DNA from: Schmidtea polychroa
Taxonomy: Eukaryota
Assembly (NCBI GenBank): GCA_044892525.1
Contig: CM097888.1
Location: 47,058,001-47,122,000, forward strand
DNA: 64,000 nucleotides
Reading direction: 5' to 3'
Below are positions 1 through 61,340 of this stretch, in pieces (position 1 is the stretch's first letter; each line of letters starts with the position of its first letter). Position numbers and translations under genes: made by a program. Below the pieces are notes generated by a model. The model worked only from the letters and a program-made list of their open reading frames with translations. It did not search any database and was not told where the DNA came from.

Positions 1-3000
1 GATGCAAGTGGATATGCAGCCGGAGCAATATTAGGACAACTCGACGAAGAAGGAAAAGAAAGAGTGATTGGATACTACAGTAGAACGTTTAAAAAGCACG
101 AGAAAAACTATTCCGTAACCGAGAGAGAAGCGTTAGCAATCATACAAGCAATTAAACACTTTCGATATTTACTATGGGGACACGAAATATGTATCACCAC
201 GGATCATCAACCATTAGTATGGCTTGGTCAACACAAAGAAGCTTCAAGTAGATTGATGCGATGGGCAATGCAGTTACAAGAATATTCACCGTTCATAAAA
301 TTCAAAGCGGGAAGAGCGAATGCCAATGCGGATTGTATGTCCAGATTTATCTTTCCAGATTTAGTAGATCACGAAATGCAACGAATATGTCTGATGGTAG
401 CAGAAGATTTAGATTTTTGCCAATTACGGAAAGACCAACAAGAGGATACAGAGTTGAAGCAAATCATTGAATATGTGAAAACAGGGAAAGCAGAGGTATA
501 TGAGAAAGATCAAAAATTGAAGGAGCATATGGATAAACATCGACATCGATATATTATCGAGAAAGATTGGTTATTGATAATGGATGGCGAGAAAAGACTG
601 ATGTGCATTCCCGAGAATAGACGTAAAGATCTACTAACACAATACCATGACGGAAGACTCGGAGGACATATGTCATCTAAAAAGACGTTGGCACGAATGA
701 AACAAAAATATTTTTGGCCTACATTGACCGAGGATGTAACGGAATGGGTGAAAAATTGCATAACTTGCGCAACCAGAAAAAACACGGGAACAAAATGGAA
801 GGCACCATTAAAGCCAATGCCAGTACCAGCAGAACCAATGACAATGATATCAATGGACGTAGTCGGTCCACTACCAGAATCAGATAGAGGAAATATATAT
901 ATATTGGTAATCACAGATTATTTGACAAAATTCCCCGAAGCATTCGCAATGGCAGATCAGAAAGCAAGAACAATCGCAAAAATATTAGTAGAGGAAATAT
1001 GTTGTCGATATGGAACGCCGAAACAAATACTGACGGATCAAGGAACGAATTTCATGAGCGAAATAATGAGCGAAGTCACCAACTACTTCAAGATCGCAAA
1101 ATTAAGAACATCACCGTACCATCCACAAACTAATGGTATGACAGAAAGATTCAATGGAACACTGATTCAAATGTTATCAAATTATGTCGATCGTCATCAA
1201 CGAGACTGGGATGAATATATAAAATTATGTCTAATGGCTTACAGAATGTCGATTCACGCGTCCACAAAGATGAGTCCGTTCAAGTTGATGTACGGCAGAG
1301 AATGCAATATGCCAATGGATTTAGAATATCAGCCACCGATATCACAATACATGGAAATAGACGATTATGTAACCAAGTTCAAGGAAAGAATGCAGGAAAT
1401 CTGGGAAACCGCAGGATTGAATATAAAATTTTATCAAGAAAGTTACAAAGAGTTACATGATAGAAAGAAAAACGTCAAACAGCATACGTTTCAAACAGGC
1501 GAATGGGTGATGATTGAAACACCAGAATTAATTCCAGGAACCACCAAAAAATTACAACGAAACGGTAAAGGGCCGTATGAGATTCTATTCGTCGGAGAAA
1601 CTAATGTAAGAGTACGATTAGTGAACAACCCTTTTACAAGACCAATATACGTAAATGTTGCACGATGTAAGCCAATTCCGAAAACCGCCACCAGTCAGCC
1701 GGAAGGACGTACACTAACGACAAGATCACAAACGTATAGAATAAACATGTTACAGCAAATAAACGAACCAACAGGTAATCGATTAGGGTTACAACCATCA
1801 GAAGCCGAGAAAATCATAAAGGAAGTAAAAGTTAAAATGCCCGGATGGGCAGAAGACAGATTAGATTTTGAGATATTGGGAGGTCTGCTAACAATGATCG
1901 AAAATTATGCAAACCGAGAAAGAACACACCCATTGCTCAGGGTAGTTAAAAGTCAATGGCCTATATTATTCACGATCACAGACCACTACGGAGACACACC
2001 CCTGCACAAGCTTTTAAAGGTGGGTAGTAACGAACAGATATTAGAAACAATTGAAGCATTTCGCGATTGTAACATTTCGACAGATCAAGAAAACAACCAA
2101 GGTTACACTCCACTAATGATAGCAGCCAATCGGGATAAAGCTAAAGATATTATCATCGCATTACTTGAAACTGGGTCAAGGATAACCACACAAGATCACA
2201 ACCAGAAAAATGCATTACATCATGCAATCGAAGGGAAAAGTACGGAAGCCTTCATAATCTTAGTAGATCTAATATCATACGAGGATAATAGAGAGATAGG
2301 AAACATGTATGACGGGCTATTAACTGCAATCAAAGAGAAATTAACAACAATTACTGGAATACTAATTGCATGGAGGAACCCGATAAAAAACGATTATATG
2401 GTAGATATAAACGAAACATTTACCAAAGGAGAAAATACCTTGATGAGAGAAGCGATGAGAGGACATCACCTATTCGAAATTCCAAATCAACTACTACAAC
2501 GAGGCATAAAATTCTCAAATCACAAAGACGAACAACTAATCAGAAAACGAATTACCAACTTCGAAAAAGCTATATCTCAATTTACCGATAAAGTACAAGT
2601 AAAATTTTGGGACACCGTGAGTGTTTTACATATGATGGAAACTATGAACAACATTCGAGAAAACTACCTAAGTATTATTCAAGTTCTAACGGCAGAGGAA
2701 CGCATTAACAGTTCGAACAAGAAAAAGATAAAAATGAAGAAAGTAAAAGCAAGAGAGTCTGAGGAACAAGTCGATCAACCAATAACCGATATAGCAACAA
2801 CAAGTAAACCAAAGATAATAAACTCCGACCAAGAGATAGTAGTACGTAAGGCTAAAGAAGTATTCTTTGAAGAAATGCAAGATCTATCCGATGAAGCGAT
2901 ACTAGCAAAAATAACCAAAACAGTACACACCTACGCAAGAGATCAGACCACAAATCTAGACATAGGAAAAATAAAAACATTTATACCACTAGCATTCACC

Positions 3001-4983
3001 TTACCAACAAAAGACTCAAGAACACCATTACAACAAGCCATTTTAGCAGCAAAAGAGAACAGAGCAATAACCATCATAAGAATCCTCAGAGACTTCGGAG
3101 AAGAATCTAATGCAAAAAACGAACAAGGGGAAACAGCAATGATGTATGCAGCCATAACAAATATACACCCGAAAACATTACATATACTACATCAATCAGG
3201 TTCGAGACTTGACGAAAGATCAAACGAAGGAAATTCTGCCATGGATTGGGCAACAATACAACCAAACTTGGAAATGATTAGATTCATTTGCAAAAATGCT
3301 ACAAGAACTGAGGTAGAAAATATCTGTAAAAACACGTCACAGTTCCAATGGAACACGATACGGATGAACTTAGAAGCCATGAAGTTGCTGCTAACATGGA
3401 GAATACCACAGAGCAATAAATATGCAATAAATATAAATGAGTTCTACGAAAACGGAGAAAATGCTATGGTTAAAAATACACTAACAAAAGGAGGAACTCC
3501 GAAAATCATAATGATCGTATTAAACAGAGAAGATCTCAAATTCACGCAGAATCTAAACGAACAAAAGCGAATCGGGAAACATCGTCGGATACAATTAAGA
3601 GAATTAGTGAAAGAATGGAATAGAAAGAGACATGTAGCAACAGGCAGAAAGGAGTTCGAACTCGAAGCAAAATTAGCAAGAAACAGAGTGCTAACGGCAT
3701 ACCGCAGATTGTTGAATGATATAAATGTCGAGGACGACATTTTAAACGATAGCGGGGGAGATAAAGACGATAAAGACGATAAAGACGACGATAATAATGA
3801 AAAAGGTCGAAACGGGAATAAAGAGAAAGAGAAATCAGAGGAGAATAATCAAGAAAATAACGACGCGAGTAGGAAAAAAGAGGAAAATAACCCGAGAAAC
3901 CGAATAAAGCAAGAAGAAAAGACGAATAGTGGAAAACAGAGGGTATGCCTACTTTTTACCAACAAAGAAATGGAGACAAATATGATGATAATGATACTCG
4001 TACTAACAATGGTGGAAATGATAACAGCCCAGGGAGGAATGAGAACGATAAAAGAAGTCAAAGAAACGGAAAATAAGGACAGCAAAGAGGAAGAACTAAA
4101 ACAAGAAAAGAAAAAACAAGTACAAGAGCAGCAATGGGATCTAAAAGAAGAATGGGATTTAAAAGAAAGGTGTATATTAGGAAGATGTATGTCTAGAGCT
4201 TATCAGAGACTAGTGTTAAAAAATGAAGATGCAGAACCAATAACGGAAGTAAGAATACAAGAAGCATACCGAAATCGAGAAGGAAAGAGAATAACGAAAG
4301 TCAAAGGGAAGGAGGTACACCTGGGAAAAGGAGGTGAGGTAGTGATAACGCAACTCCAGCCAAGAAAAGAACACAAAGTCTGCATCGCAAGATTAAGACC
4401 GGGTGAAGACTGTCTACAATATGTAATACAGCAACAACCTCCAAAAGAATACACAATATGCATCTGGAGAAAAGATACAGCGAGAGAATGTCGACGATAC
4501 CCTGGGAAAAGAGGGAAGAAAAGAAAAATCGATGATGAAAAAGATGAGCAAGGAAAACGCAAGAAAAACAGTGAGAAACATCAAGACAACTATGTATCCG
4601 AAGAGGAGATGGAGAAAATACAAAAAATGGCAAAGGAAGGTATGAACGAGGAAATAGCAAGAATACGAGGAATGATGAAAGGAAATGGCAAAGACGGTAA
4701 TCTAAAAAGCACAGAAGCAATATCAACAATAACGAGCAAGGAAAAAGCGGAAATTATAAGCATAAAACAGATGATGTGGATCAGCGGTATAATAATAACA
4801 GGGGCCTTTTTAATCATAACGGGGGGGACAATAAAAATAATCAAAGACAGACGACATCGCGGGGAATTAGAAATGACCAGAATAAGAAATTTTCAACATC
4901 GTGTAAAACGACCAAGTAATATCAAGCAGGAACAGTGGGTGGAGGCCTGGAATGCTCAGCGCCCTCCAAGCTCACGTATATAG
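1..4983 (+). CDS. pol: Pol polyprotein C-terminal part: RNase H - integrase - ankyrin modules - membrane-anchored tail (frame open from base 1)
   Basis: Frame 1 is open from 1 (DASGYAAGAILGQ...NYSVTEREALA...TDHQPL, RNase H). Integrase HHCC (YHDGRLGGH...CITC), D-D35-E (SMDVVGP, TDQGTNF, NGMTERFN) and GPY motif. Ankyrin motifs GDTPLH, GYTPLMIAA, KNALHHA, RTPLQQA, GETAMMYAA, GNSAMDWA. Hydrophobic segments at about 3982-4030 and 4771-4842. No stop until 4981. Confidence 0.95.
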   Translation, partial: DASGYAAGAILGQLDEEGKERVIGYYSRTFKKHEKNYSVTEREALAIIQAIKHFRYLLWGHEICITTDHQPLVWLGQHKEASSRLMRWAMQLQEYSPFIKFKAGRANANADCMSRFIFPDLVDHEMQRICLMVAEDLDFCQLRKDQQEDTELKQIIEYVKTGKAEVYEKDQKLKEHMDKHRHRYIIEKDWLLIMDGEKRLMCIPENRRKDLLTQYHDGRLGGHMSSKKTLARMKQKYFWPTLTEDVTEWVKNCITCATRKNTGTKWKAPLKPMPVPAEPMTMISMDVVGPLPESDRGNIYILVITDYLTKFPEAFAMADQKARTIAKILVEEICCRYGTPKQILTDQGTNFMSEIMSEVTNYFKIAKLRTSPYHPQTNGMTERFNGTLIQMLSNYVDRHQRDWDEYIKLCLMAYRMSIHASTKMSPFKLMYGRECNMPMDLEYQPPISQYMEIDDYVTKFKERMQEIWETAGLNIKFYQESYKELHDRKKNVKQHTFQTGEWVMIETPELIPGTTKKLQRNGKGPYEILFVGETNVRVRLVNNPFTRPIYVNVARCKPIPKTATSQPEGRTLTTRSQTYRINMLQQINEPTGNRLGLQPSEAEKIIKEVKVKMPGWAEDRLDFEILGGLLTMIENYANRERTHPLLRVVKSQWPILFTITDHYGDTPLHKLLKVGSNEQILETIEAFRDCNISTDQENNQGYTPLMIAANRDKAKDIIIALLETGSRITTQDHNQKNALHHAIEGKSTEAFIILVDLISYEDNREIGNMYDGLLTAIKEKLTTITGILIAWRNPIKNDYMVDINETFTKGENTLMREAMRGHHLFEIPNQLLQRGIKFSNHKDEQLIRKRITNFEKAISQFTDKVQVKFWDTVSVLHMMETMNNIRENYLSIIQVLTAEERINSSNKKKIKMKKVKARESEEQVDQPITDIATTSKPKIINSDQEIVVRKAKEVFFEEMQDLSDEAILAKITKTVHTYARDQTTNLDIGKIKTFIPLAFTLPTKDSRTPLQQAILAAKENRAITIIRILRDFGEESNAKNEQGETAMMYAAITNIHPKTLHILHQSGSRLDERSNEGNSAMDWATIQPNLEMIRFICKNATRTEVENICKNTSQFQWNTIRMNLEAMKLLLTWRIPQSNKYAININEFYENGENAMVKNTLTKGGTPKIIMIVLNREDLKFTQNLNEQKRIGKHRRIQLRELVKEWNRKRHVATGRKEFELEAKLARNRVLTAYRRLLNDINVEDDILNDSGGDKDDKDDKDDDNNEKGRNGNKEKEKSEENNQENNDASRKKEENNPRNRIKQEEKTNSGKQRVCLLFTNKEMETNMMIMILVLTMVEMITAQGGMRTIKEVKETENKDSKEEELKQEKKKQVQEQQWDLKEEWDLKERCILGRCMSRAYQRLVLKNEDAEPITEVRIQEAYRNREGKRITKVKGKEVHLGKGGEVVITQLQPRKEHKVCIARLRPGEDCLQYVIQQQPPKEYTICIWRKDTARECRRYPGKRGKKRKIDDEKDEQGKRKKNSEKHQDNYVSEEEMEKIQKMAKEGMNEEIARIRGMMKGNGKDGNLKSTEAISTITSKEKAEIISIKQMMWISGIIITGAFLIITGGTIKIIKDRRHRGELEMTRIRNFQHRVKRPSNIKQEQWVEAWNAQRPPSSRI

Positions 4984-5151
4984 AAAGGATTATGACTGTA
5001 TATAGATTGTAAAAAGTAAGTAGGAAATATTTATTTATATAACAATATTCTATATTTTTATATAAGCGCGGTATCAATAGTATATAATGATGGGGATAAT
5101 TAATATGAAAATAAAATTAGATAAGGATTGAAAAGTATATATAAATTAAGA

Positions 5152-5511
5152 ATGGAGCGAATAGGCGAGGAAGTAAACCACAGTACAACAACCGAGGAGA
5201 TGTGGAAACAACAATGTGCAATGTTAACTCAAGTGATTTCGAATTTACAGGAACAAGGACTCGCTGTACAAAGAAGCTTAGTCGAAAGTTTAAATAAAGG
5301 CTTCAATTATGTAAGAATAATCGAAGACCAACGAATGAAAATAGAACAAATGCAGCGAGAGATAGACCGAATATCACGATACAGCCAGGTGCAAGAAGAG
5401 GAGTTAATAAGAATCGCGGAAGAGATGGAGCGAGAGGAGATAGAAGACTGGTCAGAATGGTTAACCAGCAGGGAAGAGGGCGGACAAGAGGCCGACTCTT
5501 CCAGCCAATAA
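5152..5511 (+). CDS. Retroelement accessory ORF, about 119-aa coiled-coil protein of unknown function
   Basis: ATG at 5152 in an open frame with E/Q/R-rich heptad-like composition; same strand and base bias as neighbouring ORFs; AT-rich spacers on both sides. Confidence 0.7.
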   Translation: MERIGEEVNHSTTTEEMWKQQCAMLTQVISNLQEQGLAVQRSLVESLNKGFNYVRIIEDQRMKIEQMQREIDRISRYSQVQEEELIRIAEEMEREEIEDWSEWLTSREEGGQEADSSSQ

Positions 5512-5601
5512 ATATAACCTAAAATAGCAATGTAAATAAATGTAAATAAAAAACACGAAACTGTACCAGTAACGAATATATGTATATATATAATTATAGA
5601 A

Positions 5602-6990
5602 ATGGATAAGCGACAACGAGAAGAATTCAGAGAAATTGTTGAACAAATCAGAAAGTCCACCACAATTCGAATACACAACCATGTAACGTGTGGAATATGC
5701 AAGAGCTTATTAAGAGAACCTCACCAAACCAGATGTGGATGCAGAATGTGCAAAGAATGTATAGAGGAGATAATAAAGAAGGGACCACAATGGTGCCCAG
5801 TATGCAAAGAAACAATGATAACAAGTTTGGGAGATACAAACGAAGATAAAGCAGCTGTAAAAGATATGTTAAATGCAAACCTAGGATGTAAAAACACCCC
5901 ATGTAATTGGCGAGGAGTGATATGGGAAGTGAGGCAACATATGGAGCAATGTGAGTATAAAATCAGTCAATGCAAACGTTGCCAAGAAGAGATTAAAGTC
6001 AATGAAGAAGCAGAACATCAAAGTCGATGCGAAGAAAGACTGGAGAAATGCGAGTATTGCGGAGAAAACGACACCTGGAAGAAACTAATCAGTCAACATC
6101 ACAACATACAAGAGGAGAAAGTGTGCGCAGAATTCAGAGGAGAATGCCCCAACAAATGCGATAAACCCGGAGTAATAAAACTCGCTCAACATCTAAAAGA
6201 GTGTGAAAGAAAAAAGATAACGTGTGTGCTAGGAAAATGGGGATGTCAGAAACAATTACACCGAGGGGAATTACCCCAACATCTAGCAGAAAACGTATCA
6301 ACACACGCGGAAATATGGTCAACGGTATTACAGGAAAACGAAAGGAAAACCGAAAACTTAGAAAGAGAAATAGTCTCGCTAAAAGCGTTGGTAAAAGAAC
6401 TATTGGAAGAAAAGGAAGCATTTGAAGAGGCGAGAACAAGTACAAAGATACAGACAGATCTAGTAGAAACTAGCAACATTATGGTGAAAGAACTATATCA
6501 AAAAGTAAGCGAATTAAACCTCAACGAATTAATACCTACGGCTCCGTACATATGGAAAATAACGGGAGTAAAAGAGAAGATGCAGAGAGCGAGAAATGGA
6601 AAGGATACAACATTACTAAGTCCAGCATTCTACTCATGGAAAAACGGGTATAAAATGAAAATGAAAGCATACCCCAATGGGGATGGAAGTGCATACGGAA
6701 CGCATTTCTCAGTATTCTTCTTGATGTGCAAAGGGCCATACGACGAGTTAATAGAATGGCCATTCAAAGCAAAAATAGACCTCGCAATGATGAACTATCA
6801 AAGTATACACGAACAGAGTTTCCATACAGCGGGAAACCTCGTATGTTACCAAAGGCCCTTGGAAGAAGAAGGACCAGCAACCGGAGCACCAAATTTCATC
6901 CTACAGCGGAAAGTAGAAGACATGACGAGAAACGACACTATATACATAAAAATAGCGGTGAGGCGAGACGGGAAGAGTAGGACTGAGTAG
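5602..6990 (+). CDS. TRAF: Full-length intronless TRAF-family protein (RING, TRAF zinc fingers, coiled coil, TRAF-C/MATH), 462 aa
   Basis: RING CGIC...P..TRCGCRMCKEC...CPVC; repeated C-x-C/H TRAF fingers; coiled coil ENERKTENLEREIVSLKALV; MATH hallmarks YIWKI, SPAFYS..GYKM..KAYPNGDG...GTHFSVFF..KGPYDELIEWPF. Paralog (TRAF2/3/5-like) cannot be resolved by eye. Confidence 0.95.
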   Translation: MDKRQREEFREIVEQIRKSTTIRIHNHVTCGICKSLLREPHQTRCGCRMCKECIEEIIKKGPQWCPVCKETMITSLGDTNEDKAAVKDMLNANLGCKNTPCNWRGVIWEVRQHMEQCEYKISQCKRCQEEIKVNEEAEHQSRCEERLEKCEYCGENDTWKKLISQHHNIQEEKVCAEFRGECPNKCDKPGVIKLAQHLKECERKKITCVLGKWGCQKQLHRGELPQHLAENVSTHAEIWSTVLQENERKTENLEREIVSLKALVKELLEEKEAFEEARTSTKIQTDLVETSNIMVKELYQKVSELNLNELIPTAPYIWKITGVKEKMQRARNGKDTTLLSPAFYSWKNGYKMKMKAYPNGDGSAYGTHFSVFFLMCKGPYDELIEWPFKAKIDLAMMNYQSIHEQSFHTAGNLVCYQRPLEEEGPATGAPNFILQRKVEDMTRNDTIYIKIAVRRDGKSRTE

Positions 6991-7209
6991 AGAGACGAAT
7001 AATTTTGTATATACTAATTGTAAATATCGGCGTATATATCCAGTAAAATATTATATAGTAGTGTAGAAAATTCCCCCCAAATCTACCAAAGGTAAACTTA
7101 AGCGGAAAACTCCTAAAACAACTCCTATAACGAATTATAAAAATAAATAAATAATAAACCAGATATAAGCGTACAACGTTGAGTTAATGATATCGTTATT
7201 TAGACAAAG

Positions 7210-8031
7210 ATGACACAAAAAGGAACTGAAGCCCCAAACCACGAAACCAAAGTCAATAAAATCCATAAGGGAAAATGGGTCAAAGTAATGTTACAATTGA
7301 CGAACCAGACCCACAACCATCTCGAAGAGGCCAGGGAATACGAGAATAACAAATATCAGTGGTTAGTAAACAATTTAAGAGCCGAAGCAGAAGCATGCAA
7401 AAGAGCCTCTAAGTGGGCATCATTGGAAAACACTCGCCAAGAAGCGCACAGCCACTATTTAAAACAGTTAGTGCAGGAAGCACGGAAACGATTGACGGAC
7501 GAAAACACAAAACGAGAAGCAGAAAAACAAAAGGAAGGAAGGAAAATGAATCACCTATTGGCAGAAGCCCGAAACTGGAAGCGGCAGAACAAAGAGATGA
7601 AAAAAGAAATGAAAGAATTGCCTATGAGATTAGAATACGAAAGCGAACAAGGCAAATGGGAGGAAAATCTGGTCATAAGAGAAGAACTGAAACGGCTCAG
7701 AAAGATTGCGGCCCGAAGCCAAACATGGCAGACCAAAGCCATGGAATTTGAAAGACATCTAGCCATGAAAATCTCCATAAGGGAGCACGAGAATGCCGCA
7801 ATGGAAGAACTGATACTTCAACAGTCAGGACGACTCGTGGAACTGGTGAATAAGGTCGCAGAACTAGAACGAGATGTCAACGGATACCAAGGAGCTCTGG
7901 AGCAGAGAAATATGGTACTGGCGGGGAAAAACAAAAAGTTAGAAAACGAAAGGAAAATGTATAACGAAAATCTTAAAAATCTGGAGATAGAGATCAAGAA
8001 ATGGGAAAACGGCGAAAAGCGGAAGAGCTAG
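7210..8031 (+). CDS. Retroelement accessory ORF, 273-aa coiled-coil protein (possibly continues into 8001-8246 across a frameshift)
   Basis: Long open frame with E/K/R/L heptad composition; preceded by ttttag|acaaagATG. Confidence 0.75.
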   Translation: MTQKGTEAPNHETKVNKIHKGKWVKVMLQLTNQTHNHLEEAREYENNKYQWLVNNLRAEAEACKRASKWASLENTRQEAHSHYLKQLVQEARKRLTDENTKREAEKQKEGRKMNHLLAEARNWKRQNKEMKKEMKELPMRLEYESEQGKWEENLVIREELKRLRKIAARSQTWQTKAMEFERHLAMKISIREHENAAMEELILQQSGRLVELVNKVAELERDVNGYQGALEQRNMVLAGKNKKLENERKMYNENLKNLEIEIKKWENGEKRKS

Positions 8032-8246
8032 AAAAACAGATAGAGGTAAGAGACGATGAAACCAGGTATCTAACATACCTGTTGGACGAGGAACTTAACG
8101 TGTCAAGAGCACTAAGAGACGAAGTGCAAGAACTTAGAGCGCAGATTCCCCGGTACTACATCCCATTTGATCCCATCGCACTCCAATTACAAACGTCAGT
8201 AGAAAGCGATGAGGGATATGTAGGCCAGGAAGAGACCTTTGTATAA
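8001..8246 (+). CDS. Short overlapping ORF, likely the frameshifted C-terminus of the 7210 ORF
   Basis: Overlaps the previous ORF by 31 nt in another frame and continues the coiled-coil pattern (AEELEKQIEVRDDETRYL); no spacer or acceptor in front of it. Confidence 0.5.
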   Translation: MGKRRKAEELEKQIEVRDDETRYLTYLLDEELNVSRALRDEVQELRAQIPRYYIPFDPIALQLQTSVESDEGYVGQEETFV

Positions 8247-8421
8247 AGATAAAAGGAAAGATAAAAAATATAAAAATCGGGACCTGTATCCCAACCAAAA
8301 AAAATTAATGGTACAGTAAAAGTATGAAAGGGACTGTAACCCTGATTATAAAATAACATATAAATGTATAAGTATAAGCCGCACTGTAGCGCAATTATTA
8401 ATTATGTATATATTATAGAAA

Positions 8422-9123
8422 ATGAACACTGAAAACGGACAACCCAGCATAACATCTATAATTGAGTTAGAAGAGGGAGAAATTGAAGTTGATGAAGTGG
8501 AGAGGAAGAAAACTATCAAGGAAGAATTACAAGAAGAGAGACAGGAAAACGAAAGATTAGTTGAAAGATGGAGAGATAATCGAAAAATGATTAAAGTATT
8601 GAAAAGAGAATATATCTTGTTAGAAGGAGTAAAGAAAGAAGTAGAGGAGGAAAACGAATGGCTTCACGAGCAAAGAAAGCGAGGGAGAAATTGGGAAAAG
8701 ATCGCGGAAGAATTATGGCAGGAGAGGGCCAGTCGAAAGGCCGACGAAGTGATTAGTGACTATTGGAAAACCGAGGCACGGAAACACCAGGAAAGCCTGA
8801 AAGAGTTACAACTCCAACTACACCAAAAACAGAAAGAATGTGAGATAATGAGACGAATGAACAACAAATACCAGGAAATAGACAACGAAGAGGACGGGGA
8901 AAGGGAAAATGATTTTCTACAGATAATGAACCATAGAAACCTCGAAAGAGCAACACAAGAAATAAAAGCACTAAAAGGAAAAATAATAACCCTAAGGCAA
9001 CAGTTAGACGAAAGAGACAAACAATTAAAAGTACTACCCGAATTGAGAAAACGAGTAATAAAAGCAGAAACGAGAGTGATGAGAACATCCGAGAAAACCC
9101 GTAAAAAGAAAACCCGGCAATAA
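8422..9123 (+). CDS. Retroelement accessory ORF, 233-aa coiled-coil protein with basic C-terminus
   Basis: Open frame, highly charged heptad composition, ends KTRKKKTRQ; preceded by ttatag|aaaATG. Confidence 0.75.
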   Translation: MNTENGQPSITSIIELEEGEIEVDEVERKKTIKEELQEERQENERLVERWRDNRKMIKVLKREYILLEGVKKEVEEENEWLHEQRKRGRNWEKIAEELWQERASRKADEVISDYWKTEARKHQESLKELQLQLHQKQKECEIMRRMNNKYQEIDNEEDGERENDFLQIMNHRNLERATQEIKALKGKIITLRQQLDERDKQLKVLPELRKRVIKAETRVMRTSEKTRKKKTRQ

Positions 9124-9178
9124 TTAAAGATGAATGATCAATGTAAATAATTGTAAATAAAAATTTTCGTATAGTAGT

Positions 9179-9805
9179 ATGTGGTTCGGAGCAACCTTGG
9201 TGACAATAATGATGATAGCGATAAACGGGATACCCATGTGGCAACCAATCCCAACACTCTGGGAGAATCCCGAGAAACAGCAAAACTCGTTAACCAAACT
9301 AAAAAGCGCAAGAAAGCTCTGCAACAACATCCCGAAACAATGCTGGAACAAAGCCGTCTGGCAAAAACTTCAAATGCAACTCCACCTACAAACCCAAAAA
9401 ATCGAACAGCTCGAAACTCTCTTACAAGAACAAACCACCCAACAATCCTTGAAGGAAATCATCATGAAGAAGGAAGTAAAAGAAAGCCAAGTCTTACTCT
9501 ATACTACCATCAGTGAAACCCTTATCATCTGCGCACTAGTCATCTGGAAAGCGTATGATATTCATCGAACATGGAGAAGAAACCAGTCACTATCCGAAAA
9601 ACACGAAAGAAAGAACCCACGATCGAAAAATAAATATAAACGAGCAGTACATTTTCAACAACCAAACCCACCCGACCAAATGCAACAAAATCTATCTCCT
9701 GACCAAATGCCTGTTACAATCCAGCTCCCCACGATAACAACTTCAACCAGCCATCCGACCCAGAATTCAACTAACCAAGACATTCCGAACCTTGAGATCA
9801 TGTGA
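9179..9805 (+). CDS. Retroelement accessory ORF, 208-aa predicted membrane protein (N-terminal signal/TM, coiled coil, second TM, P/Q/T-rich tail)
   Basis: Hydrophobic MWFGATLVTIMMIAING; heptad LQMQLHLQTQKIEQLETLLQE; hydrophobic VLLYTTISETLIICALVIW followed by basic residues. Confidence 0.7.
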   Translation: MWFGATLVTIMMIAINGIPMWQPIPTLWENPEKQQNSLTKLKSARKLCNNIPKQCWNKAVWQKLQMQLHLQTQKIEQLETLLQEQTTQQSLKEIIMKKEVKESQVLLYTTISETLIICALVIWKAYDIHRTWRRNQSLSEKHERKNPRSKNKYKRAVHFQQPNPPDQMQQNLSPDQMPVTIQLPTITTSTSHPTQNSTNQDIPNLEIM

Positions 9806-10530
9806 CATCGACCATTCATAAACTTTGTGTGTATAAATCCGGTCACCTAAAGTGGCCACTGCTTGCTTATATTTGTCCTTTTATCTGTTTAATTAAAGTA
9901 TTATTTAGTTATTTTAATTTTATGTTTGTGTGAATGTTGACCGTGAAATTAGTTGTTATGCCGAAAAAAGGTATGAGTTAAACGTATGATATTATATGAA
10001 TTGCGGGGCGCAATTTTAACGGGCCCCGGAGTGATTTGTTGGGCTAAAATGCGGAGTGGAGAAAACTGGAGCGAATAGAAAATAAACCTCGAAAGATAAA
10101 TGAAATAAGATAAAAATATCAAGTACCATAAAAATCTCACTAGTAAATAGGAAGGAACAATAAAATAACAATAAAAGAATAAGAATAAGTAAACAAACTA
10201 AATAAAATCCAATAAACCCCTTAAGATTTAGAAATAAAACGGGTTAAGGTACACAGCGGATAAAATAGAAATAGAATAAGTAAAAAAGTAAAAACAAATA
10301 AACGAGGAATTTAAGAAAATAAATAAAAATAAAACCATCTTAAGTCTAATTAAAACAAAAAATGATATTGCAATAAAATAACAATAAGTCCACAGGAAAA
10401 ATAGGAGAAAAATAAGAAAAATAAATAAAATAATAATAAGAGATAAGTCAGGTCATTAAAAATTTAAAATACGATGATAAAAACATAAAAATAATAATAA
10501 ATAGTAAAAATACAAGCAGGTAGCGTCCTG

Positions 10531-10580
10531 ATTGGACGAAAAATACTATATATGTAACGTGAAAAATTAGACGACAACCA
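10531..10580 (+). promoter_or_regulatory. LTR core promoter: CCAAT box (ATTGG), TATA box, predicted initiator
   Basis: ATTGG 10531-10535, TATATAT 10547-10553, Inr-like CCACTTT about 33 nt downstream; same layout in the solo LTR. Confidence 0.65.
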
Positions 10581-12930
10581 CTTTTAATTTTTCACGATTA
10601 CAGGTAAAATTTTAGAAAAGAACTTAGAACCACTTTTAATTTTTCACGATTACAGAGCATAGACTTCAGATATTTCACCGAATTCAGGACTAGAATCGCA
10701 AACGCCAATTCCAGAGATTTTCAGAATTTAACTTTAATTTAGTCGAGACCATTTTAAATTCGATTTCGTTCCAGTTTTTGAAACTACCGGTAGGCCGATT
10801 GATTTATATGTATTAGTAATTTATTAATGATGAAAAACAAAACTCATTTCGTAAAATAAATTTATTGAAATACAAATGGCCTTTTCTTCATGGTGCCGGC
10901 GACTGTACCATCTGAGAACTCCCAGTATGATGTGGATGAGTTGGAAATGTACCACGGTAGAGAACACAACAGTGGGAAGGTTGACCTTCATAAGAAATCC
11001 CGAAGATGCTGAAAATGAGAATGTGATATTTGCAGAGAAGGATATTTATCATACGAGAAATCCACCAAGGGTATGATGAGGCTGCGGTTGTGTGGAATGA
11101 ATAGCATCATACTTGGAGTCCAAATGATAGGGTCGCCGGGTGAGCTTTATTGATTCATTTATTTTCATTGATTTATTTATTTTTTGATTCATTTACTGCT
11201 ATTCGAGTCATTCATTCCTTTTATTATTCATAAATTGTATATTAAATGTTGATTTTGTGAAAGACGAGTCAAACGGTCCCTCACGACGATGCAAGAACGG
11301 CGGCAGAGATGATTGCCTTCTTGGGTGGGTCATGAGGGGTGAGGAGACTCCGCAGGTGGAATACTGTTGGAAGTGGAATTTCTCACATCGAGCGCGATCT
11401 GATAGAGGATCTTTCGTTTTCTTTTATGAAGTCACGCTGAAGTTTCAGAATAAATAATGCAAATTTCCAAAGTCGGAGACAATTTTTCGGATTGAGATCA
11501 GTAGTTCGTTGTTGTTAGGAAAATTTGCTTTTCCATCGAATATTGATAGATGTCTGAGTAGGGATGGGCGATGAATTGTTAGAGTTTTCACTGGAAGATC
11601 TGCTAAGCACTTAAAAATTGAACCCCGAGAGGTACATTGCAGGGACATTAGCGAGTAAACCCATTCATTGACTAATTTAGACTTTAGCTTGACATTGAAT
11701 ATCTGATAAAGTTTGGTTTGACGTTGACAGCGGCTCGTCTAAAATGGGAAAGTAAACAAATTTTTTGATAAGGAAATAAATCACTTGCCGTGAGTCCGAG
11801 TGAAGATATCAATAGCGATAGGAGAATCATTAGTTGCCCATGGCCAGATAAATTTCCGACGGGGAAAATCGGCTGATAATTTGATAAAGTCATCGAACGA
11901 GTTGATTGAGAAGGCGGCAGTCGATCGAGTGTATTGAGTGGTCTTATCGTGAGTCGACCTAATATCGAAAATCCAGAATATAGAGTAATTTTTATCTACT
12001 GAATCCGCAAGTCACCCACACAATCGAATTTCTTGAGTTTTGGACACACCAACTGAGTACCCGTCTCAACTAGAGCATCTCTCTACAACTCTACCTCTAT
12101 TAATCGCTCGCCCACATGTACACATGCATCACACTCAGATTAGGTCACAGTGCACATGTGGATATCATCATTACCTAATCATAGGGAGAGAGTCGTACAC
12201 TTGAAACTGCTGGTAGACCACTGGATTGCGTCAGAGAACATGGCGATGCGACGAGAAATTTTTTTTTTGTCAGTGTGCAAGTCGCTAGTTAAATGCACCA
12301 ACATGCATCGTGACGAACCCGTCGATAGTTGATGGCATAGATAGACAATCAAATGAACACATAACTGCGCCCAATTTAAGCGTCACTATGACGATGTTTA
12401 TGGCGTTAAATTGAAATAACTAAGTTATGAGCCATGATAAAAATTTAAGCGAGAGTATTATGATTTTCTTACAAACCCGAGGGGCCTACATACAAGACGG
12501 GGTGTCCCGGTAATTGCCGACTTTCCGTTCATCATACAGCACGCGTAGAATTTGATGACGTAGCAGCAAAATGAGTAAAATATAATGGTTAAAATGTAAC
12601 AACGATAATTAAGATAATAGCATTCATAGTAACGAATTAACAGTCATGCAGTAGTTAAAAATAGCCAAACCCATAAAGTAAACCTAAAAGCTAGCATAAT
12701 GAAGTGTCTTCATGAATCCCGTTTTCTTCTCATAAAGTAGTAATGATTTCATGGGTTAGTTTAGATGTTTGAGGTTGCATGAAGGTGAATGTTTGTCGAC
12801 GGGGTAGATTGGTAGGCCACTCTTTGATAACTTGGTCGGGGAGATTCTTAAACTTCATTTTTCCGAAAACATGAATAATGCCCCAGTGAATTTTTTTTAA
12901 TCTAACAATAAAAATTTCTTAACAATTCAG

Positions 12931-13695
12931 ATGAATACCTCAACCAGTTCCGGGAAAACCCTCAGACCTTGCTTTTCCTGTGCTGATAAAAATGCCGATA
13001 TCGCACAGCTCCACTTGTACATAGGGGAATTGAAGAAGAGAATTGACCTCTATGAGGGAACGTGGTTCTCCCCACCACAAATGAAGGAGGAGAAGAGCAA
13101 GATTCTGCGTCTGGAGCACTGCCGTGACAGTCTCCTGGAAGAAAGCAGGTGCCAGAGGTTAACCATAAAGGCCCAATCAGAGGCACTGCACAAGGTGTAT
13201 TCCGAATCAGAACTAGCGAAGCGAGTTCGCGAGTACCCGATACAAGATGGGACTAACGTGTTCCCAATGCACCACAAATTAGCTGAAACCTCATCAATAT
13301 CCAGTTGTAAAGGGCATGGCCCACAAATGCCGCCAATTCCCGCCCCAGTCCTTTCGGGCGATCGACCTATGGCTGGCGGTTCATCGGACCCTATCTTGGC
13401 TCCAGTACTCGTGCCACACCTCCTTCAGTCCCCAGCAGAAGCTACACTTCCCCATCGAAAGCGTAAGCGGCTGACGCGTTCTGAAAAAAATCAGAAGCGT
13501 AGAAATGCCATGGCCGCGCTCGAAGCATCGTTGTCCGCAGCCCAATCGACTATCAAGGAAATTACAGTTACCCATTCCATTCCTACAAAGGAAGTATTCC
13601 GGGTAGTTCCGGCCGACAGTATCAAATTCCTCGAGGATCGCCGGTTGCCCGTTGATATCGACGAGATGCTCGCAGAAGGAGAAGCATTCTCGTAG
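12931..13695 (+). CDS. LTR-encoded 254-aa protein (CxxC, coiled coil, Pro-rich linker, basic NLS-like patch, acidic C-terminus)
   Basis: Intact in both LTR copies; 95 of the first 103 aa identical while most differences are synonymous; ttcag directly before the ATG and a CTAAC branch-like motif at 12902. Confidence 0.85.
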   Translation: MNTSTSSGKTLRPCFSCADKNADIAQLHLYIGELKKRIDLYEGTWFSPPQMKEEKSKILRLEHCRDSLLEESRCQRLTIKAQSEALHKVYSESELAKRVREYPIQDGTNVFPMHHKLAETSSISSCKGHGPQMPPIPAPVLSGDRPMAGGSSDPILAPVLVPHLLQSPAEATLPHRKRKRLTRSEKNQKRRNAMAALEASLSAAQSTIKEITVTHSIPTKEVFRVVPADSIKFLEDRRLPVDIDEMLAEGEAFS

Positions 13696-14575
13696 CAAAT
13701 TCTCTCTCGGGTCTCGATTCCCTGCTATTACGAACGAACTTGAAGAAGCGACGTTATCTCGTGACTAATCTTTAATGTTTTGCATTTACTTAAACAATGC
13801 TGAATGTAATTTGATGTTCCGTTCTAATATAACTGTTCGATTTTCTTTGATTGTGTTAATTGTATGTATGATTTGCTACGGTTGAATTGCATGAGAGAAG
13901 GATCACGAAAATATAGTAGAAACTCAAATGTCGTACCTTTGGACCAGGGTCGGACCGAATGATGCGTAAAGAATGGGTAAGACCTTCTAAGGCACCGTAG
14001 AACCCGAACCGAGAAAGGGTTAGGAGTAGTCCTAAGGCAGGGGCTCACCTGCTAACTCTTTCCAACCCGTGTGAGCAGCACCAACGTGGAAACACCACCA
14101 CGGGCTCATACGTGGGAATATGCGAATGATCATTTGGAGTGTGTGAGGGAATGGTCTGAGCAGAATGATGATACCTGATGTGTATGATAATCATACCTAT
14201 ATATTTTCTTTTCCCCCCACATACGCCAACAAATAATTTGTTGCATAATATATATAAAACAATTTTTTATTATTTAATTTTTATATATTCTTAGTAATAT
14301 CTCTATGAAAATTTTTTCTTAATAATAATTTTAATTAATAAATTTTCTATTTCAGTTTTATTAATCATTAACTTTTCCTAGACGTTTTCCTGGCACTTTG
14401 GTAAAAATATTAGTTAAAATTATTCGATGAAAATACTGATTTTCAATATTAATGAAATTTGAAAGATCAAAATTTTAAAAAATAACTGAAATAAATAGAA
14501 AAACATCTACAAAAATTCAAACTTTATTATCGGTTTAATGTTTTGTTTAACACAATCAATATAATATCTCGATCA

Positions 14576-15175
14576 ATGTTGAAAATAGGATTATTCAAAG
14601 TTTTAAGTAAAATTTGCTCCAATCAATCAAGTAATTAGTGATTTTAAACTTTCTAAATTGATTTTTTTAATTATGAAGCAAAAATAACAATTTTGAGATG
14701 TATGAGCAGTGATCACCATCATTATAACTATCTTGAGTTCGAACCTGAAACAGTACGTAAAATAACATTACGAGTGAGTGATGCAGTGGCTCCTAAACCA
14801 ATTGGTAAAAACCATAAATTTTACACCTATCTCCGTGGTTTTGGAGCTTTATTTGTTTCACTTATTTTCTTTGGTACCACAGGAATGATTTGGATCGAAA
14901 ACTATGGTTTATGTTACGAAATTTTCCATGATCAGAAATATGAAAATTCTGAAAAGGGCCTCGAATTTTATGAGGTTGGTAAAAATTATTTTCATAAGGA
15001 AAGTGATGAACGGGCAGCGGAAATTATGGCTGAAAGAAGAAAAAATTATAGGGAAACTAAAATTATTCCAGGCGTTCAATTGGGAAAAAGTTTAGAAGGT
15101 GATTGGCCAATTCAAGAGTACGAAAACACTGATGAAGCAATATGTTGGATAGATCGCAAATTGGCGGGAAAATAG
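14576..15175 (+). CDS. Host two-exon gene (14576-14630, 14679-15175), 183 aa, probable mitochondrial single-pass membrane protein; family unassigned
   Basis: A 48-nt GT-AG intron joins the frames: MLKIGLFKVLSKICSNQSTKITILRCMSSDHHH (basic, acid-free presequence with an R-C-M-S-S cleavage-like motif); one TM segment GFGALFVSLIFFGTTGMIWI. Confidence 0.7.
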
Positions 15176-16329
15176 ATTCTAGTTTTATTGCTAAATTTCA
15201 ATTTGTTAGTTTATTTGTTCCGATAATCAATAAATATTCTATTTATTTTCATTTATTTTCCCTAAATGTTATACCAATTTCATAGGATTTTACTTTACAT
15301 AATTTCTTACAATTTGATTTGCTAATCCAAAAGTTAATTAATGTTATATATATATATATATATATATACATTTCATATATTATATATTTTTTGGCGAAAA
15401 GTTCAAACTTATAGGAAATGAAAATAATAAAATGAATATAATAATTTCCAACTTTGGCACTTTATTTCAAAAATACAAATTAATTAATTATCTGCACGTC
15501 TTATTTATTAAAGAAAACTCAGTTAAGGCAAATGAACTCAAATTAACGATAACCGTCGAAGAAAGTAGAGTGCACATCGTTCCGGTTAAAGGATTCAAGG
15601 TTGTTATTCACTGATAAAATATAAACCTCAGGACGAAATCATAGTCTTCCATTAAATTAAGGAATTCAATAATTGTGAGAAATTTGGAAATTTTATAATA
15701 CCAAGAGTATTTTTGTGCTGTTTGTTATATAATACAAGGATACAAGGAGTACGATTGAATGTTTATTCTTGCAAAAAAGATATTGGAAACCAAACAATTT
15801 TATCAACCAATTCATTGTGCATATAAAAACTGCATAAAGTTGATAATGCTTACCTTATTTTGTATTTTCTTAATAACTACCTGAGCTGAATTTCTTAGTT
15901 TTTACGCTGTTGGGTTTATATTTATTTAAATCTACTACCTAATATTTGACTCGGTGTCTTTGAATGAAGAGAAAATGAATAAAATTGGTCTTAAAATTAA
16001 TAGATAATTTATGAAAGATTTAGGTTTTGACCATTTTGTGATCAACAGAAAAATATAATTAATATTCATTTCATGAATCTTCAAATTTTCTTTTTTTGTC
16101 AATTTTATTAAGGGTTTTCTCAATTATTTTAAGTTTATCTTCTTTGTTTAAACGCTAGCCATTTGATTGATGAGTATCTACTAAATAGCCAGATTCATAA
16201 ATATTAGACCAAAAATTTTAACACATTTGTTACCAATTTTGGATGAAACATTTCAATTCTCTACACACAAATAACAACATCCGCCTTTACTTTAGTACCT
16301 TTACAGTACGCTGCATGATCATTCAAAAT

Positions 16330-25507: not shown

Positions 25508-28500
25508 ATTTATCTATTTTATAAAATATATTAATTATATAAATCAATTAAATTTTTTTGTATTGCAAAATAATTCGATTTTTGCATAAAAATATAAATA
25601 ATTTCAAATAACTTTTTTTTAAATTTCAAATATTTAAAATGGCATTTCATGACTTATATTGCTAGATTTGTCCGACAGTTTATGACTAATCAATGGTAAT
25701 CTTATATTTTCAGTTATATTATCAGTTCCTACATACGCTATTTGGTTAGCTAGGCAAAATGCTCATAATGTGAGGTGCTTTTGATAGGATACGTCGAAAT
25801 CCCATTTTAAGTCTTGTATCATAAAGAGCATTATGTAGATATTCTCTTCTTCATAGGAATTATTTGACAAGTCACATATCATGAATTTCGTCAATTATAG
25901 AATTTCAATTTTATTGAAAAATAAATTAAGTCAGATTTTGGAACAAGTTTCGGATTTTGAAAATTTACATTAAAGAAACTAAAGTTACATTACATTTCGT
26001 TTTGCAATTTTTCCTTTTTATTTCAATTCGAGCATTAATATTATTAAGTTAGTTAAAATTTCATTAACCCTTTCAATGCCGGTGACGTTCTATACTTTTT
26101 TATGAAAATTTAAATACAACATAATTTAAACAAAAATCTATTTTTTTATATTTCATTTATTTTCATTATGACAAAGGATTTTAGGTCTTTTTTCATACGG
26201 GTTGAAAAGATCAAGTTATTAAACAAGAAAATAAAAGTAGAGAAGTGTAAATATTATAATTATATTCTATAAATATTATAAATTTGTCTACTTTTAATAA
26301 AATTCTAGTTACAACAGAAAATCTTTAAAAAACCAATCAGTTGTTACGATTCCAAAGATGAATGGAATTATAAATAATATTCAAAGTACCTGCATAATTC
26401 CTAAATTAACTACTGCCAAGTTATTAATGAGTCTCAGTCCAGAAATGGTAATTCTTCCAGCCAGCTGCTGAAGGGCTGAAAAAAATGTAAATAATGATCA
26501 TCCAAATAATGATGTAGGGTGGTGTAAAAAATATTATACATTTCCTTGACAGTTGAGATTATAGTTTCAATGAACATATACTCACATAGTCAGATTATTT
26601 AGGGAGTAGACGCGTAAAATAAAATTTTTTAAGCTCGAATTTTCAAATAACTTATTTCATGGCCTCTGAATCTGGGATGTGCAACAAGAGTAAAAATATT
26701 TCTCTATATATAAAAAAGCTAGGGGTCCCCTCCATCCGAATTTTACTTTTTAATTTTTTTTAAATTTTTTTTTGTCAAATAAATAAAATAATTTTTTATT
26801 AGTTTGGCTGTTTTGACGCAAGTCGTGTTAGATATTTAACGGGTTTACGTCTAATCCATACCTGAACATCATTAACCCCACGTTCTAACGGGGTTGGTGA
26901 AGCGAAGCGAACGGGGCAGAGCCCCTAGTATATATAAAAATGATAGATAAAGAAAATTAATATTTAATTATATTTAAAGTTTGAAGAAATTTTAGTTGAA
27001 GGTTGTTACGATTCATTATGATTACACCCATCATCATCACATGAAAAGATAGGATAGAAATGAAGCTGAAAACGATCACATTGACTGACTAGATGGATTT
27101 AATGGAATTCAAAATGAAAGAGCATAATTCAACAGATCTATAAATACCGTATTTATTTTCTTATAACACACAGGCTTTAATATTATCGTTCAATACTTTT
27201 TTAATTTTTAAAAACACTCAACTTTTAAACCCAACATGGTGGGTAAGAAGAATGCAACTGGGCGCATTTCTACAAAAGGATTCCACACAGTAGAAGTAAA
27301 ACATATGAGAACTGCATATACGATACAATTTAAAAAGAATGTGTTGGATTTCTATGATGTAAATGGTGCGTCACAGACAGTTACCAAATTTTGGCCTGAT
27401 CTAAAGTCATCATCGCCAGCTCGTGAAGCCAAAAGACAGTTAATATATCAATGGAGAAAAAATAAAGACCGAATAACAAAACTTGGGAATATGAATAGGG
27501 TCAAGAAATTGAAAAAGATCCGACCACTAGGAACTTCCTCGAGTCTTTCATCTGAAGTCGAAGACGAACTTATTTTCTGGGTCCGAACCCTGCGCCAAAA
27601 TGGTGTCCCCGTAACCGACAGTATACTTCGTACTAAAGCTCGCCTATCGTGCAGACAAACCGATGTTAATAATTTCTTAGCAAGCACTGGGTGGCTAAAA
27701 ACCTTTAAGAAAAAATATGGCTTGTCACTCAGAGCCAAATCTCATCAAGGACAAACATCCATAGTCCTTCCAAATCCGGTAGCCACTCAGTTTGCATTAG
27801 ATGTCCGACAAAAAATGATTGAATTAAATGTAGATTGTGTTTGGAATGCCGACCAAACGGCTGTTAATTATGAAACAATCCCCGGAAAAACCTTAGATAA
27901 AATAGGTTCCAAGACAATATTCATACGAACAGCTGGGAAAGAAAAAGAGAGGATATCAGTATTATTGCTGGGATCTTCTAATGGACAGAAAAAACCACCT
28001 TTTGTAATATTTAACCCTTTCGCACCGACTTTCCGCTAATGACACTATGCTAAATTTATATATTGGAACTTGTTAATATTGACCTAAATATATTCTCATT
28101 TTTGTAATCGTGGCGATTCTGAATATCCTAGAAAGTCCTGGGATAATAAGTCCCAATAGGCTTTTATGGACCATTCAAAATATCCCAGTAGGATCATGAT
28201 GAAAGTTTCTGGGACGTATTGTCTTAATAGGGGCGAAAGGGTTAAGGGTAAACAATCAGTTGTGGAGGCATCATCGTTGCAGAATAGAATTAATCAACAT
28301 GGATTTCGTAGTTGTGTCTGGAAAAAAATACAGGAGATCAATAAAACCAGCACGACTCAAATATATTGCAACCAAAATGGCTGGTTTACAAGCGATATGA
28401 TGGTTATCTGGCTTTATCATAATTTTTCCGAAAATGTGGAGAAGCCAAAGATTTTATTATTGGATGACTTTACAGCACACTGGACAAGCGATGTTTTAGC

Positions 28501-56672: not shown

Positions 56673-57434
56673 TCAGTCAAAGGGCTCCCCGTCTGCAAAC
56701 ATTTCGTCGATATCGACCGGCAATCGTTGGTTAGAGATGTATTTGATGCCCTCTGCTGGAATTACACGGAAAATTTCCTTCGTTGGAATTGAATGGCTGG
56801 AAGAGATTTCTTTTATGGTAGATTGGGCTACCGATAGTGACGCCTCGAGTGCGGCCATCGCATCTCGGCGTTTTTTATTCTTCTCGGCTCGAGTTGGCCG
56901 TTTCCGTTTGCGAGTAGACGGAGGGTTTTCTGTATCCGTGGTGCCGATTGGTGCTACCAAGATTGGAGCCAAGATGGGATCGGTAGGTCCACCGACCAAG
57001 GGTTGATAACTCGATAAGGTTGGAGCCGGGACGGGCGGCAGATAGGTACCATGCCCTTGGCAGCTTGTTGAAGTTGATTGGGATGCCTGATGGTGAGGTG
57101 GGAAAACATTGGTTTTCTCGATGACGGGAAATTCTCGAACCCGCTTGGCCAATTCTGCCTCCGTATATACTTTATGGAGGGCTTCTGATTGGGCTTTGAT
57201 AGTGAGCCGTTGGCAACGGCTTTCCTCCAGCAGGCTGTCCCTGCAATGCTCTAATCGGAGAATTTTCTTGCGTTCCTCTTTCATTTGTGGCGGGGAGAAC
57301 CACGTGCCTTCGTAGAGATCAATTCTCTTTTTCAGTGCCCCGATGTATAAGTGAAGCTGCGCAATATCTGCGTTTTTATCGGCGCAGGAGAGACACGGAC
57401 GAAGATTTTTTCCAGAGCTGGTGGAAGTATTCAT
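56673..57434 (-). CDS. LTR-encoded 253-aa protein, intact homolog of 12931-13695
   Basis: Same N-terminus, basic patch RKRKRPTRAEKNKKRRDAMAALEASL and C-terminus LPVDIDEMFADGEPFD; tttag directly before the ATG. Confidence 0.85.
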   Translation of the reverse strand: MNTSTSSGKNLRPCLSCADKNADIAQLHLYIGALKKRIDLYEGTWFSPPQMKEERKKILRLEHCRDSLLEESRCQRLTIKAQSEALHKVYTEAELAKRVREFPVIEKTNVFPPHHQASQSTSTSCQGHGTYLPPVPAPTLSSYQPLVGGPTDPILAPILVAPIGTTDTENPPSTRKRKRPTRAEKNKKRRDAMAALEASLSVAQSTIKEISSSHSIPTKEIFRVIPAEGIKYISNQRLPVDIDEMFADGEPFD

Positions 57435-59853: not shown

Positions 59854-60345
59854 CAGGACGCGACTCGTTTGTATTTTTACTATTTATTATTATTTTTATG
59901 TTTTTATCATCGTATATTAAATTTTTTAATGGCTTGGCTTATTCTTATTATTATTTTATTTATTTTTTCTTATTTTTATTATTTCTCTTCTATTTTCCTG
60001 CGGGCTCATTGTTACTTTATTGTAATATTATTTTTTGTTTTAATTAGACTTAAAATGGTTTTTATTTTTTATTTATTTCTTAAATTTCTCGTTTATTTGT
60101 TGTCACTTTTTTACTTATTCTATTTCTATTTTATCCGTTGTGTGTTTTAACTCGTTTTATTTCTAAATCTTAAGGGATTTATTGGGTTTTATTCAGTTTG
60201 TTTTACCTATTCTTATTCTCTTATTGATTTTTTATCGTTCCTTTCTATTTACTAGTGAGATTTTTTATATTTTTATCTTATTTATTTTTCGAGGTTTACT
60301 TTTCTATTCGCTCCAGTTTTCTCCACTCTGAAATTTAGCCCAACA

Positions 60346-60851: not shown

Positions 60852-60855
60852 TGTA

Positions 60856-61146: not shown

Positions 61147-61340
61147 CTCTTCTTCTGGCTCGTCTCTTCGTCATTCATTTCTTCTTTCACAATTTATTGT
61201 CTTGACTCCACCGATGAAATGAAACCCATGGAGTCGCTGATGTTTTTTCCGTCTTCTCTCAATATAGAATATTTCTCAGGGACATTGTATCTATCTTCAT
61301 TGTCGCTGTGAGTAGTTCTGAAATCCTGGCTGTTCTCAGG

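Follow-up and report, generated by a model that had tools for sequence, protein, structure and literature searches.

Chromoviruses are Ty3/gypsy elements that carry a chromodomain behind the GPY region of their integrase. For Burro/GYPSM1, the section of a review devoted to Burro elements (PMC6431247) describes an ORF1 of 4,873 aa in which Env lies in frame between Gag and Pol, together with MATH/TRAF, BIR, Bcl-2-like and ankyrin motifs, the ankyrin cargo having been in print since 2007. The BIR-RING protein of Burro1 has been reported to protect stem cells from apoptosis, as cited in a passage of PMC13465017. Finally, the giant single polyprotein of the planarian virus PSCNV carries an ankyrin domain (ANK) near membrane segments, and PMC6211748 gives it three repeats with clear BLAST affinity to host RHD-ankyrin proteins and proposes that it acts on host immunity. 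No paper on the function, duplication or processing of the Burro ankyrin cargo was found in a literature search whose reach excluded the 2018 genome and 2026 Burro1 papers, and the figures or supplements of earlier Burro papers may already show the number of ankyrin units. The present analysis contributes the comparison of families with 0, 1 and 2 units, a border word that recurs across families, and estimates of selection.

A Burro-like giant element with an intact polyprotein

The window, i.e. the whole stretch of 64,000 nt of Schmidtea polychroa DNA that was analysed, opens inside an LTR element of 30,513 bp with an internal part of 22.1 kb (the window being positions 47,058,001-47,122,000 of contig C4 in the 781-Mb genome). 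The two LTRs (4,194 and 4,195 bp) have TG...CA ends and are 99.93% identical, and with this near-identity, these ends and the AATA flanks the element is young. Translation of window positions 1-4980 gives 1,660 aa with no stop; the whole of ORF1 is a single stop-to-stop frame of 4,811 codons, the first 3,151 of which lie upstream of the window, with the domain order Gag, Env-like, protease, RT, RNase H, integrase, ankyrins and membrane tail. The parts of the element outside the ankyrin region are as follows.

1-4983, + strand: 3' third of ORF1, 1,660 aa and stop (rest at L013 548-10000)
1-285, + strand: C-terminal part of RNase H, aa 1-95 (Pfam PF17917, E 9.4e-35)
607-1680, + strand: integrase with zinc finger, rve core, GPY and SH3-like end (Pfam and translation)
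5536-6990, + strand: TRAF-like accessory ORF with RING, cysteine/histidine-rich region and MATH (Pfam, MATH E 3e-25)
5125-9805, + strand: four further accessory ORFs (5125-5511, 7204-8031, 8419-9123 and 9161-9805), no Pfam family above cut-off
10037-14231, + strand: 3' LTR of 4,195 bp, containing an ORF at 12901-13695 (5' LTR at L014 3719-7912)
14232-14235, + strand: 4-bp target site duplication AATA

Gag was recognised by PF03732 (E 8.7e-10) and by three CCHC motifs in the N-terminal part of the frame. Env, a viral fusion glycoprotein (PF24664, E 4.7e-72), lies in frame between Gag and Pol and thus precedes protease and RT. Within the integrase, Pfam places the zinc finger at aa 203-261 and rve at aa 277-375; GKGPY occurs at aa 522-526 (nt 1564-1578), and the SH3-like end matches SH3_Tf2-1 at E 0.12 only. 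The element thus shares with Burro/GYPSM1, as the review section presents it, the presence of LTRs, a size above 30 kb, a single frame of some 4,800 codons, three CCHC knuckles in Gag, Env in frame, the order PR-RT-RH-IN, ankyrins and MATH/TRAF, and may share the ubiquitin-like and Bcl-2-like regions, for which the matches are weak. The class is described with an internal part of up to 25 kb and an ORF1 of about 4,900-5,100 aa, as compared to 22.1 kb and 4,811 codons here. On these features the element is classed as a Burro-like giant LTR element.

Judged by its domains, it is not Burro1 itself, because no BIR was found: none occurs in its scanned ORFs, none of the 150 BIR places listed falls inside the element, and a six-frame search for the BIR zinc pattern gave a single match, on the antisense strand. 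The MATH domain, moreover, is found only in the downstream TRAF ORF and not in ORF1, whereas a BIR-RING ORF and MATH within ORF1 belong to another family of the same genome (see below), which by its domain content fits Burro1 better than the element does. In this, Burro1 was compared by its published description rather than by sequence identity, and the review text leaves the number of its ankyrin units unstated.

The TRAF-like ORF is present in 57 of the 59 copies compared (see below), in 47 of them with at least 440 aa in one frame. This gene is full-length and shows 66-98% identity among more diverged copies and 32% to the TRAF of the BIR-bearing family; such mobile TRAF copies may inflate host TRAF counts. 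A RING-only ORF lies between the 5' LTR and ORF1 (L014 8372-8869) and has a 26% identical counterpart in the BIR-bearing family. A profile scan of the element also returned two weak matches, one ubiquitin-like (E 0.021) and one Bcl-2-like (E 0.055); the Bcl-2-like piece gave no match in the PDB, there was no dUTPase match, and Rfam gave 0 matches in window 1-16000.

Several other features were recorded in passing. Seven bases past the LTR, a primer-binding-like site (L014 7920-7937) presumably resembles a tRNA-Pro site; the leader upstream of ORF1 contains an array of related repeats of ~40 bp (L014 about 9430-9890); and the LTR ORF (264 aa) has a basic patch. Further along the window are a diverged LTR-like stretch (41920-45972, - strand), a second copy of the LTR ORF (56676-57434, - strand), a Tc5/pogo-type transposase in two ORFs (HTH_Tnp_Tc5 and DDE_1, 27212-28873), and fragments of an ordinary gypsy element (gag and integrase zinc finger, 60282-62288, - strand).

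Two ankyrin units behind the integrase

A preliminary description of this DNA had proposed that the Pol frame runs past GPY into two ankyrin clusters, which was borne out: the frame is stop-free and the repeats were found close to where they had been placed. The region behind the RNase H contains the following parts.

382-396, + strand: border word RICLM between RNase H and integrase, predicted protease site
1738-1752, + strand: border word RINML (aa 580-584) behind the integrase, predicted protease site
1798-2610, + strand: ankyrin unit 1 (aa 600-870), with N-terminal helices, three canonical and two predicted degenerate repeats, and a long end helix
2362-2436, + strand: related motif 1 (aa 788), predicted to form a hairpin insert that separates repeats 4 and 5
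2611-2823, + strand: variable spacer between the units (62-85% identity; dN/dS 0.15 over aa 852-989)
2824-3636, + strand: ankyrin unit 2 (aa 942-1212), from profile, PDB sequence and alignment comparisons
3388-3462, + strand: related motif 2 (aa 1130)
3556-3900, + strand: conserved basic helix (17 K/R in 55 aa), then an acidic low-complexity stretch (21 D/E in 60 aa)
3940-3954, + strand: weaker border word RVCLL behind the acidic stretch
3982-4980, + strand: tail with a signal-like hydrophobic segment (aa 1328-1346), a cysteine-rich region and a second hydrophobic segment (peak at aa 1585-1603)

Pfam recognises Ank_2 in three stretches of the 1,660 aa (E 3.8e-19), and single repeats score at aa 656, 693 and 727 and again at aa 998, 1035 and 1069 (nt 1966-2280 and 2992-3305), the one at aa 998 weakly. 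An ungapped alignment of 235 residues joins the two units (aa 600-834 against aa 942-1176, offset 342). Their local score is 148, while 1,000 shuffles averaged 36 and did not exceed 63; the region past the canonical repeats alone reaches 87 (shuffle maximum 64). Profile-profile comparison with hhalign gave 98.4% and E 4.9e-15 over 221 columns at 24% identity. Protein identity between the units is 21-24%, and no likeness is left between them at the DNA level. These comparisons support an ancient internal duplication, as had been suggested from a first look at the DNA, with the difference that only about 235-270 aa are shared within a period of 342, rather than the whole of some 340 aa.

In silico modelling of unit 1 gave five helix pairs (pLDDT 76, pTM 0.73), and the model matches ankyrin proteins both in the PDB and among viral folds, so that an ankyrin fold is indeed predicted here. 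Each unit is accordingly predicted to form an ankyrin stack of five repeats. As 22 of the 34 rows of the model alignment were generic ankyrin proteins, the fold match is partly circular, and for the three canonical repeats it is the Pfam and PDB sequence searches that supply independent evidence. A model of 771 aa made with the generic ankyrins left out failed (pLDDT 36). Repeats 4 and 5 were missed by single-repeat Pfam scans and rest on the model, the fifth scoring no better than shuffles by sequence alone. The related motifs that had been noticed behind both clusters are present; instead of a separate domain, however, they are predicted to form a hairpin inside the stack, which follows the fourth helix pair and leads into the degenerate fifth repeat.

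Among the best 150 matches listed in a protein library search there were only generic ankyrin proteins (23-37% identity). Among protein candidates there was one weak match in a set of 7,999 and none in another of 1,502; viral contigs gave no relative, and in the ESM Atlas unit 1 led to generic ankyrin clusters and the tail to no usable match. Elsewhere in the genome, dense Ank_2 arrays with a spacing of ~144 bp occur near contig ends (G000 C4:86.7-92.9 Mb, C1:263-265 Mb and C3:2.4-8.5 Mb).

The location of the units recalls chromoviruses, in which the frame likewise continues past the integrase GPY motif into an additional domain, but here this place is taken by ankyrin units (about 600 aa) and a membrane tail, with a predicted protease site in between. 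No chromo family was found by Pfam in aa 1-1660 or in aa 447-566, and the PDB sequence search gave for the chromodomain one chance-level match (E 0.46), far downstream in the tail. As in PSCNV, the ankyrins belong to a giant single polyprotein and lie near membrane segments; unlike its ANK, they are duplicated, have five predicted repeats in each unit and gave no such affinity when compared with the short ankyrin exons of the host RHD gene.

A border word and predicted cleavage behind the integrase

In elements of this type an aspartic protease processes Gag-Pol at domain borders. In ORF1 the word R/Q/K-I/M-N/C-x-M recurs near the borders of Gag, of the protease and of RNase H/integrase, with six occurrences upstream of the window and three within it when 0.3 and 0.2 were expected, for a pattern that was drawn after the sequence had been viewed. 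A matrix built from five upstream words of the Gag region ranks aa 580 first in the 1,660 aa (17.0; next 11.2), a score reached by 14 of 300 shuffles and hence borderline, and leaves the RNase H/integrase word and the downstream word outside its top 10. RINML is kept in all 59 copies, which is little informative as its flanks are 86-96% conserved too; the downstream word reads RVCLP in 11 of the 59.

Comparison with related families adds to this picture. In the BIR-bearing family RIFML, whose F falls outside the pattern, aligns with RINML at the very place where identity drops from 75-79% to under 30%. Its polyprotein has like words (RINMM twice, KINML, RICMM and RICMI), one of them at the RNase H/integrase border, where RICMI/RICLI is read. 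In the compact family described below the pattern has 0 sites. From these data we infer that RINML is a protease site at which the integrase would end.

Copies of the element and selection on the ankyrin units

Forty of the 328 candidates from a DNA search were scored, all of them 97-100% identical over the junction, as were 150 of the 979 from a protein search. Among the 150 scored copies, 41 had frames of at least 4,500 codons and six had a stop inside unit 1. The 59 other copies compared with the element correspond to 39 of the DNA matches and 20 more diverged ones, the latter picked for long frames and hence biased to intact copies. A stop between integrase and ankyrins, which would have separated the two, was sought in these copies, and the junction from GPY to the ankyrins was open in every one. 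The frame was open from the integrase core through unit 1 in 56/59, through unit 2 in 51/59 and over the whole 1,660 aa in 43/59.

Pairwise comparison with three copies at middle distance gave dN/dS values of 0.04, 0.08, 0.06 and 0.07 for four parts of the ankyrin region (0.04-0.08 for unit 1 and 0.05-0.07 for unit 2), as against about 0.01 in the core of the integrase and 0.15 in the spacer. Four distant copies agree with these values where dS is unsaturated. Because dN/dS is low in both, the ankyrin units are functional cargo under selection at the protein level.

Three related families that differ in ankyrin unit number

Three related families of the same genome carry 0, 1 and 2 units. The compact, Env-bearing family (G000 C1:110157847-110175583; L076-L078) is 17.7 kb long with 1,058-bp LTRs and a frame of 3,334 codons; its integrase is 49% identical to that of the element and it has many young copies. 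None of the eight loci tested had an ankyrin match, and in the one copy that was read the integrase leads directly into a hydrophobic tail. The many young copies of this family indicate that the lineage can integrate without ankyrins.

In the BIR-bearing, Burro1-like family (G000 C2:169760000-169792000, L184-L186, as well as L169-L183 at three further places; 309 candidates, of which 150 were scored), MATH lies inside ORF1 together with one ankyrin unit, and downstream of the latter come a TRAF ORF and a BIR-RING ORF of 392-393 aa. The single unit was found in three of the four places fetched, none being recovered from the fourth. Whereas the integrase is 75-79% identical to that of the element, the ankyrins are 26-28% identical; the unit scores 94 bits with the profile of unit 1 and 89 bits with that of unit 2 (28% and 26% identity). 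In its first half it is nearer to unit 1 (33% vs 26%) and in its second half to unit 2 (26% vs 22%), a half-and-half likeness that would fit either a duplication after which the copies divided the function or the loss of a unit when the two recombined. The ankyrin block has so been gained or lost between integrase and tail, and the number of units varies.

A tail with two hydrophobic segments, the first of them signal-like, and a region of no known family ends ORF1 in all three families (L076 5061-6191 and L186 about 1590-3087 in the other two); the three tails do not align significantly. The prediction for this tail is a membrane protein without a known family, and so in each of the three families a second one besides Env; in the Burro section of PMC6431247 there is no mention of such a protein at the end of ORF1. 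A by-eye assignment of the tail to fibronectin-III was rejected, with support from neither Pfam nor PDB.

Possible roles of the ankyrin units

The preliminary description had offered two functions, a module that tethers integration and a cleaved IkB-like effector. A cleaved effector fits the data better than a tether because of the border word, the gap in conservation between integrase and ankyrins, and insertion sites in which tests of low power saw no bias; an IkB-like identity is improbable. The reading that we favour, and to which we give an even chance, is that the element's protease releases the twin units, a conserved and duplicated cargo, from the integrase and that they would then serve as a protein-binding adaptor on host signalling or cell-death proteins. 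The ankyrins would stem from a cellular ankyrin gene, having been captured at the place where the integrase adjoins the membrane tail. Cleavage at aa 580-584 would yield a product of about 730 aa comprising both units, the basic helix and the acidic stretch, which would be free or, should the weaker downstream word stay uncut, hang from the membrane via aa 1328-1346. The ankyrins would then act beside the TRAF, RING, ubiquitin-like and Bcl-2-like cargo of the element; the TRAF gene, the RING ORF and the weak ubiquitin and Bcl-2 matches themselves point to ubiquitin and death signalling.

Two explanations keep the units in the service of the element. They may be an assembly scaffold, binding the element's own proteins and linking Pol or capsid to the membrane tail or Env, whether cut or uncut. 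In favour of this are the location of the units, with the enzymes on one side and a signal-like hydrophobic segment on the other, in a polyprotein that has several membrane segments, the poor retention of the downstream border word and the strong selection on the units. The compact family, though, has no ankyrins beside its Env and membrane tail, the number of units varies among families (0 to 2), and their divergence far exceeds that of the enzymes, and we regard a scaffold as unlikely. About as unlikely is a tether, in which the integrase would keep the units and use them to read chromatin or one of its proteins, in the manner of chromovirus chromodomains. The ankyrins of G9a/GLP and BARD1 read histone marks. 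Consistent with such a tether are the position of the units right after the GPY region, always in frame, the conserved basic helix after unit 2, the presence of the EHMT1 (Z 13.4) and BARD1 (Z 13.1) ankyrins among the fold matches, tied with many others, and a GC content of 0.31 in the first 100 flank bases as compared to 0.24 in the ankyrin-less family (p 0.07). A border word, however, lies between integrase and units, and the bias in insertion sites that a first look had put forward for checking was not found in tests that were coarse and of low power; they used positions and flank composition only, with small contigs and near-duplicates dropped. The 139 places of the element are spread as expected from contig size and position and are unclustered (p 0.06-0.72), they are no different from the 63 of the ankyrin-less family (p 0.42), and the 2-kb flanks are alike in GC (p 0.39) and simple repeats (p 0.68) in 19 vs 15 flanks, the LTR end being missing in 2/20 and 6/20 of the fetched stretches, which were dropped.

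A true IkB mimic would be a narrower form of the cleaved adaptor, in which the released units derive from a host RHD factor, or bind it specifically, and keep it in an inactive state. One host gene (G000 C4:30736000-30766000; L119-L121) combines an RHD with numerous short ankyrin exons behind it, which is the architecture described for planarian NF-kB-like proteins; a profile search with RHD_DNA_bind was uninformative and had no match anywhere. IkB-alpha, IkB-beta and p100 rank 2-4 in a wide fold search with the unit 1 model (Z 15.2, 14.9 and 14.8; rmsd 3.8 over 184 aligned residues for IkB-alpha), and five predicted helix pairs per unit agree with an IkB-type stack of 5-7 repeats. These Z values nevertheless lie within 1 of those for ankyrin-B, FEM1, VARP, KANK3 and designed repeats, and a Foldseek search of the PDB lists no IkB-family entry before rank 32. 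The PSCNV replicase ranks 3 among viral folds, and its ankyrin domain has been proposed as an IkB mimic (PMC6211748). Behind unit 2 there is an acidic stretch, a DSGxxS degron is absent, and a TRAF gene adjoins. Against the mimic, the ankyrin exons of the RHD gene score at most 6 bits with the element profile, short exons being a handicap here, whereas an unrelated host ankyrin exon reaches 43 bits among the 37 host ankyrin frames compared. We consider it improbable that the retrotransposon cuts a twin ankyrin protein from its own Pol and, together with its own TRAF, silences the planarian RHD-ankyrin (NF-kB-like) factor, and the mimic as such is no more probable. Least credible by far is a neutral passenger, a functionless host fragment whose frame stays open solely for the sake of translating the tail that follows: a related family does without ankyrins, but dN/dS stays at 0.04-0.08 across subfamilies near synonymous saturation while the adjoining spacer drifts, and a unit is kept in a second family, so that this explanation is largely refuted by the selection estimates.

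Implications

The reading of the units as a cleaved adaptor names one predicted cut site, at aa 580-584. Three young families with 0, 1 and 2 units in one genome form a natural comparison between a role in steering integration and a role in host signalling, and one Burro cargo, BIR-RING, is already reported as beneficial to host stem cells in the passage cited from PMC13465017. Should the units silence an RHD factor, the number of units (0, 1 or 2) bearing on it would differ among co-resident families, and, if true, this would be immune mimicry as in large DNA viruses, reached independently of PSCNV.
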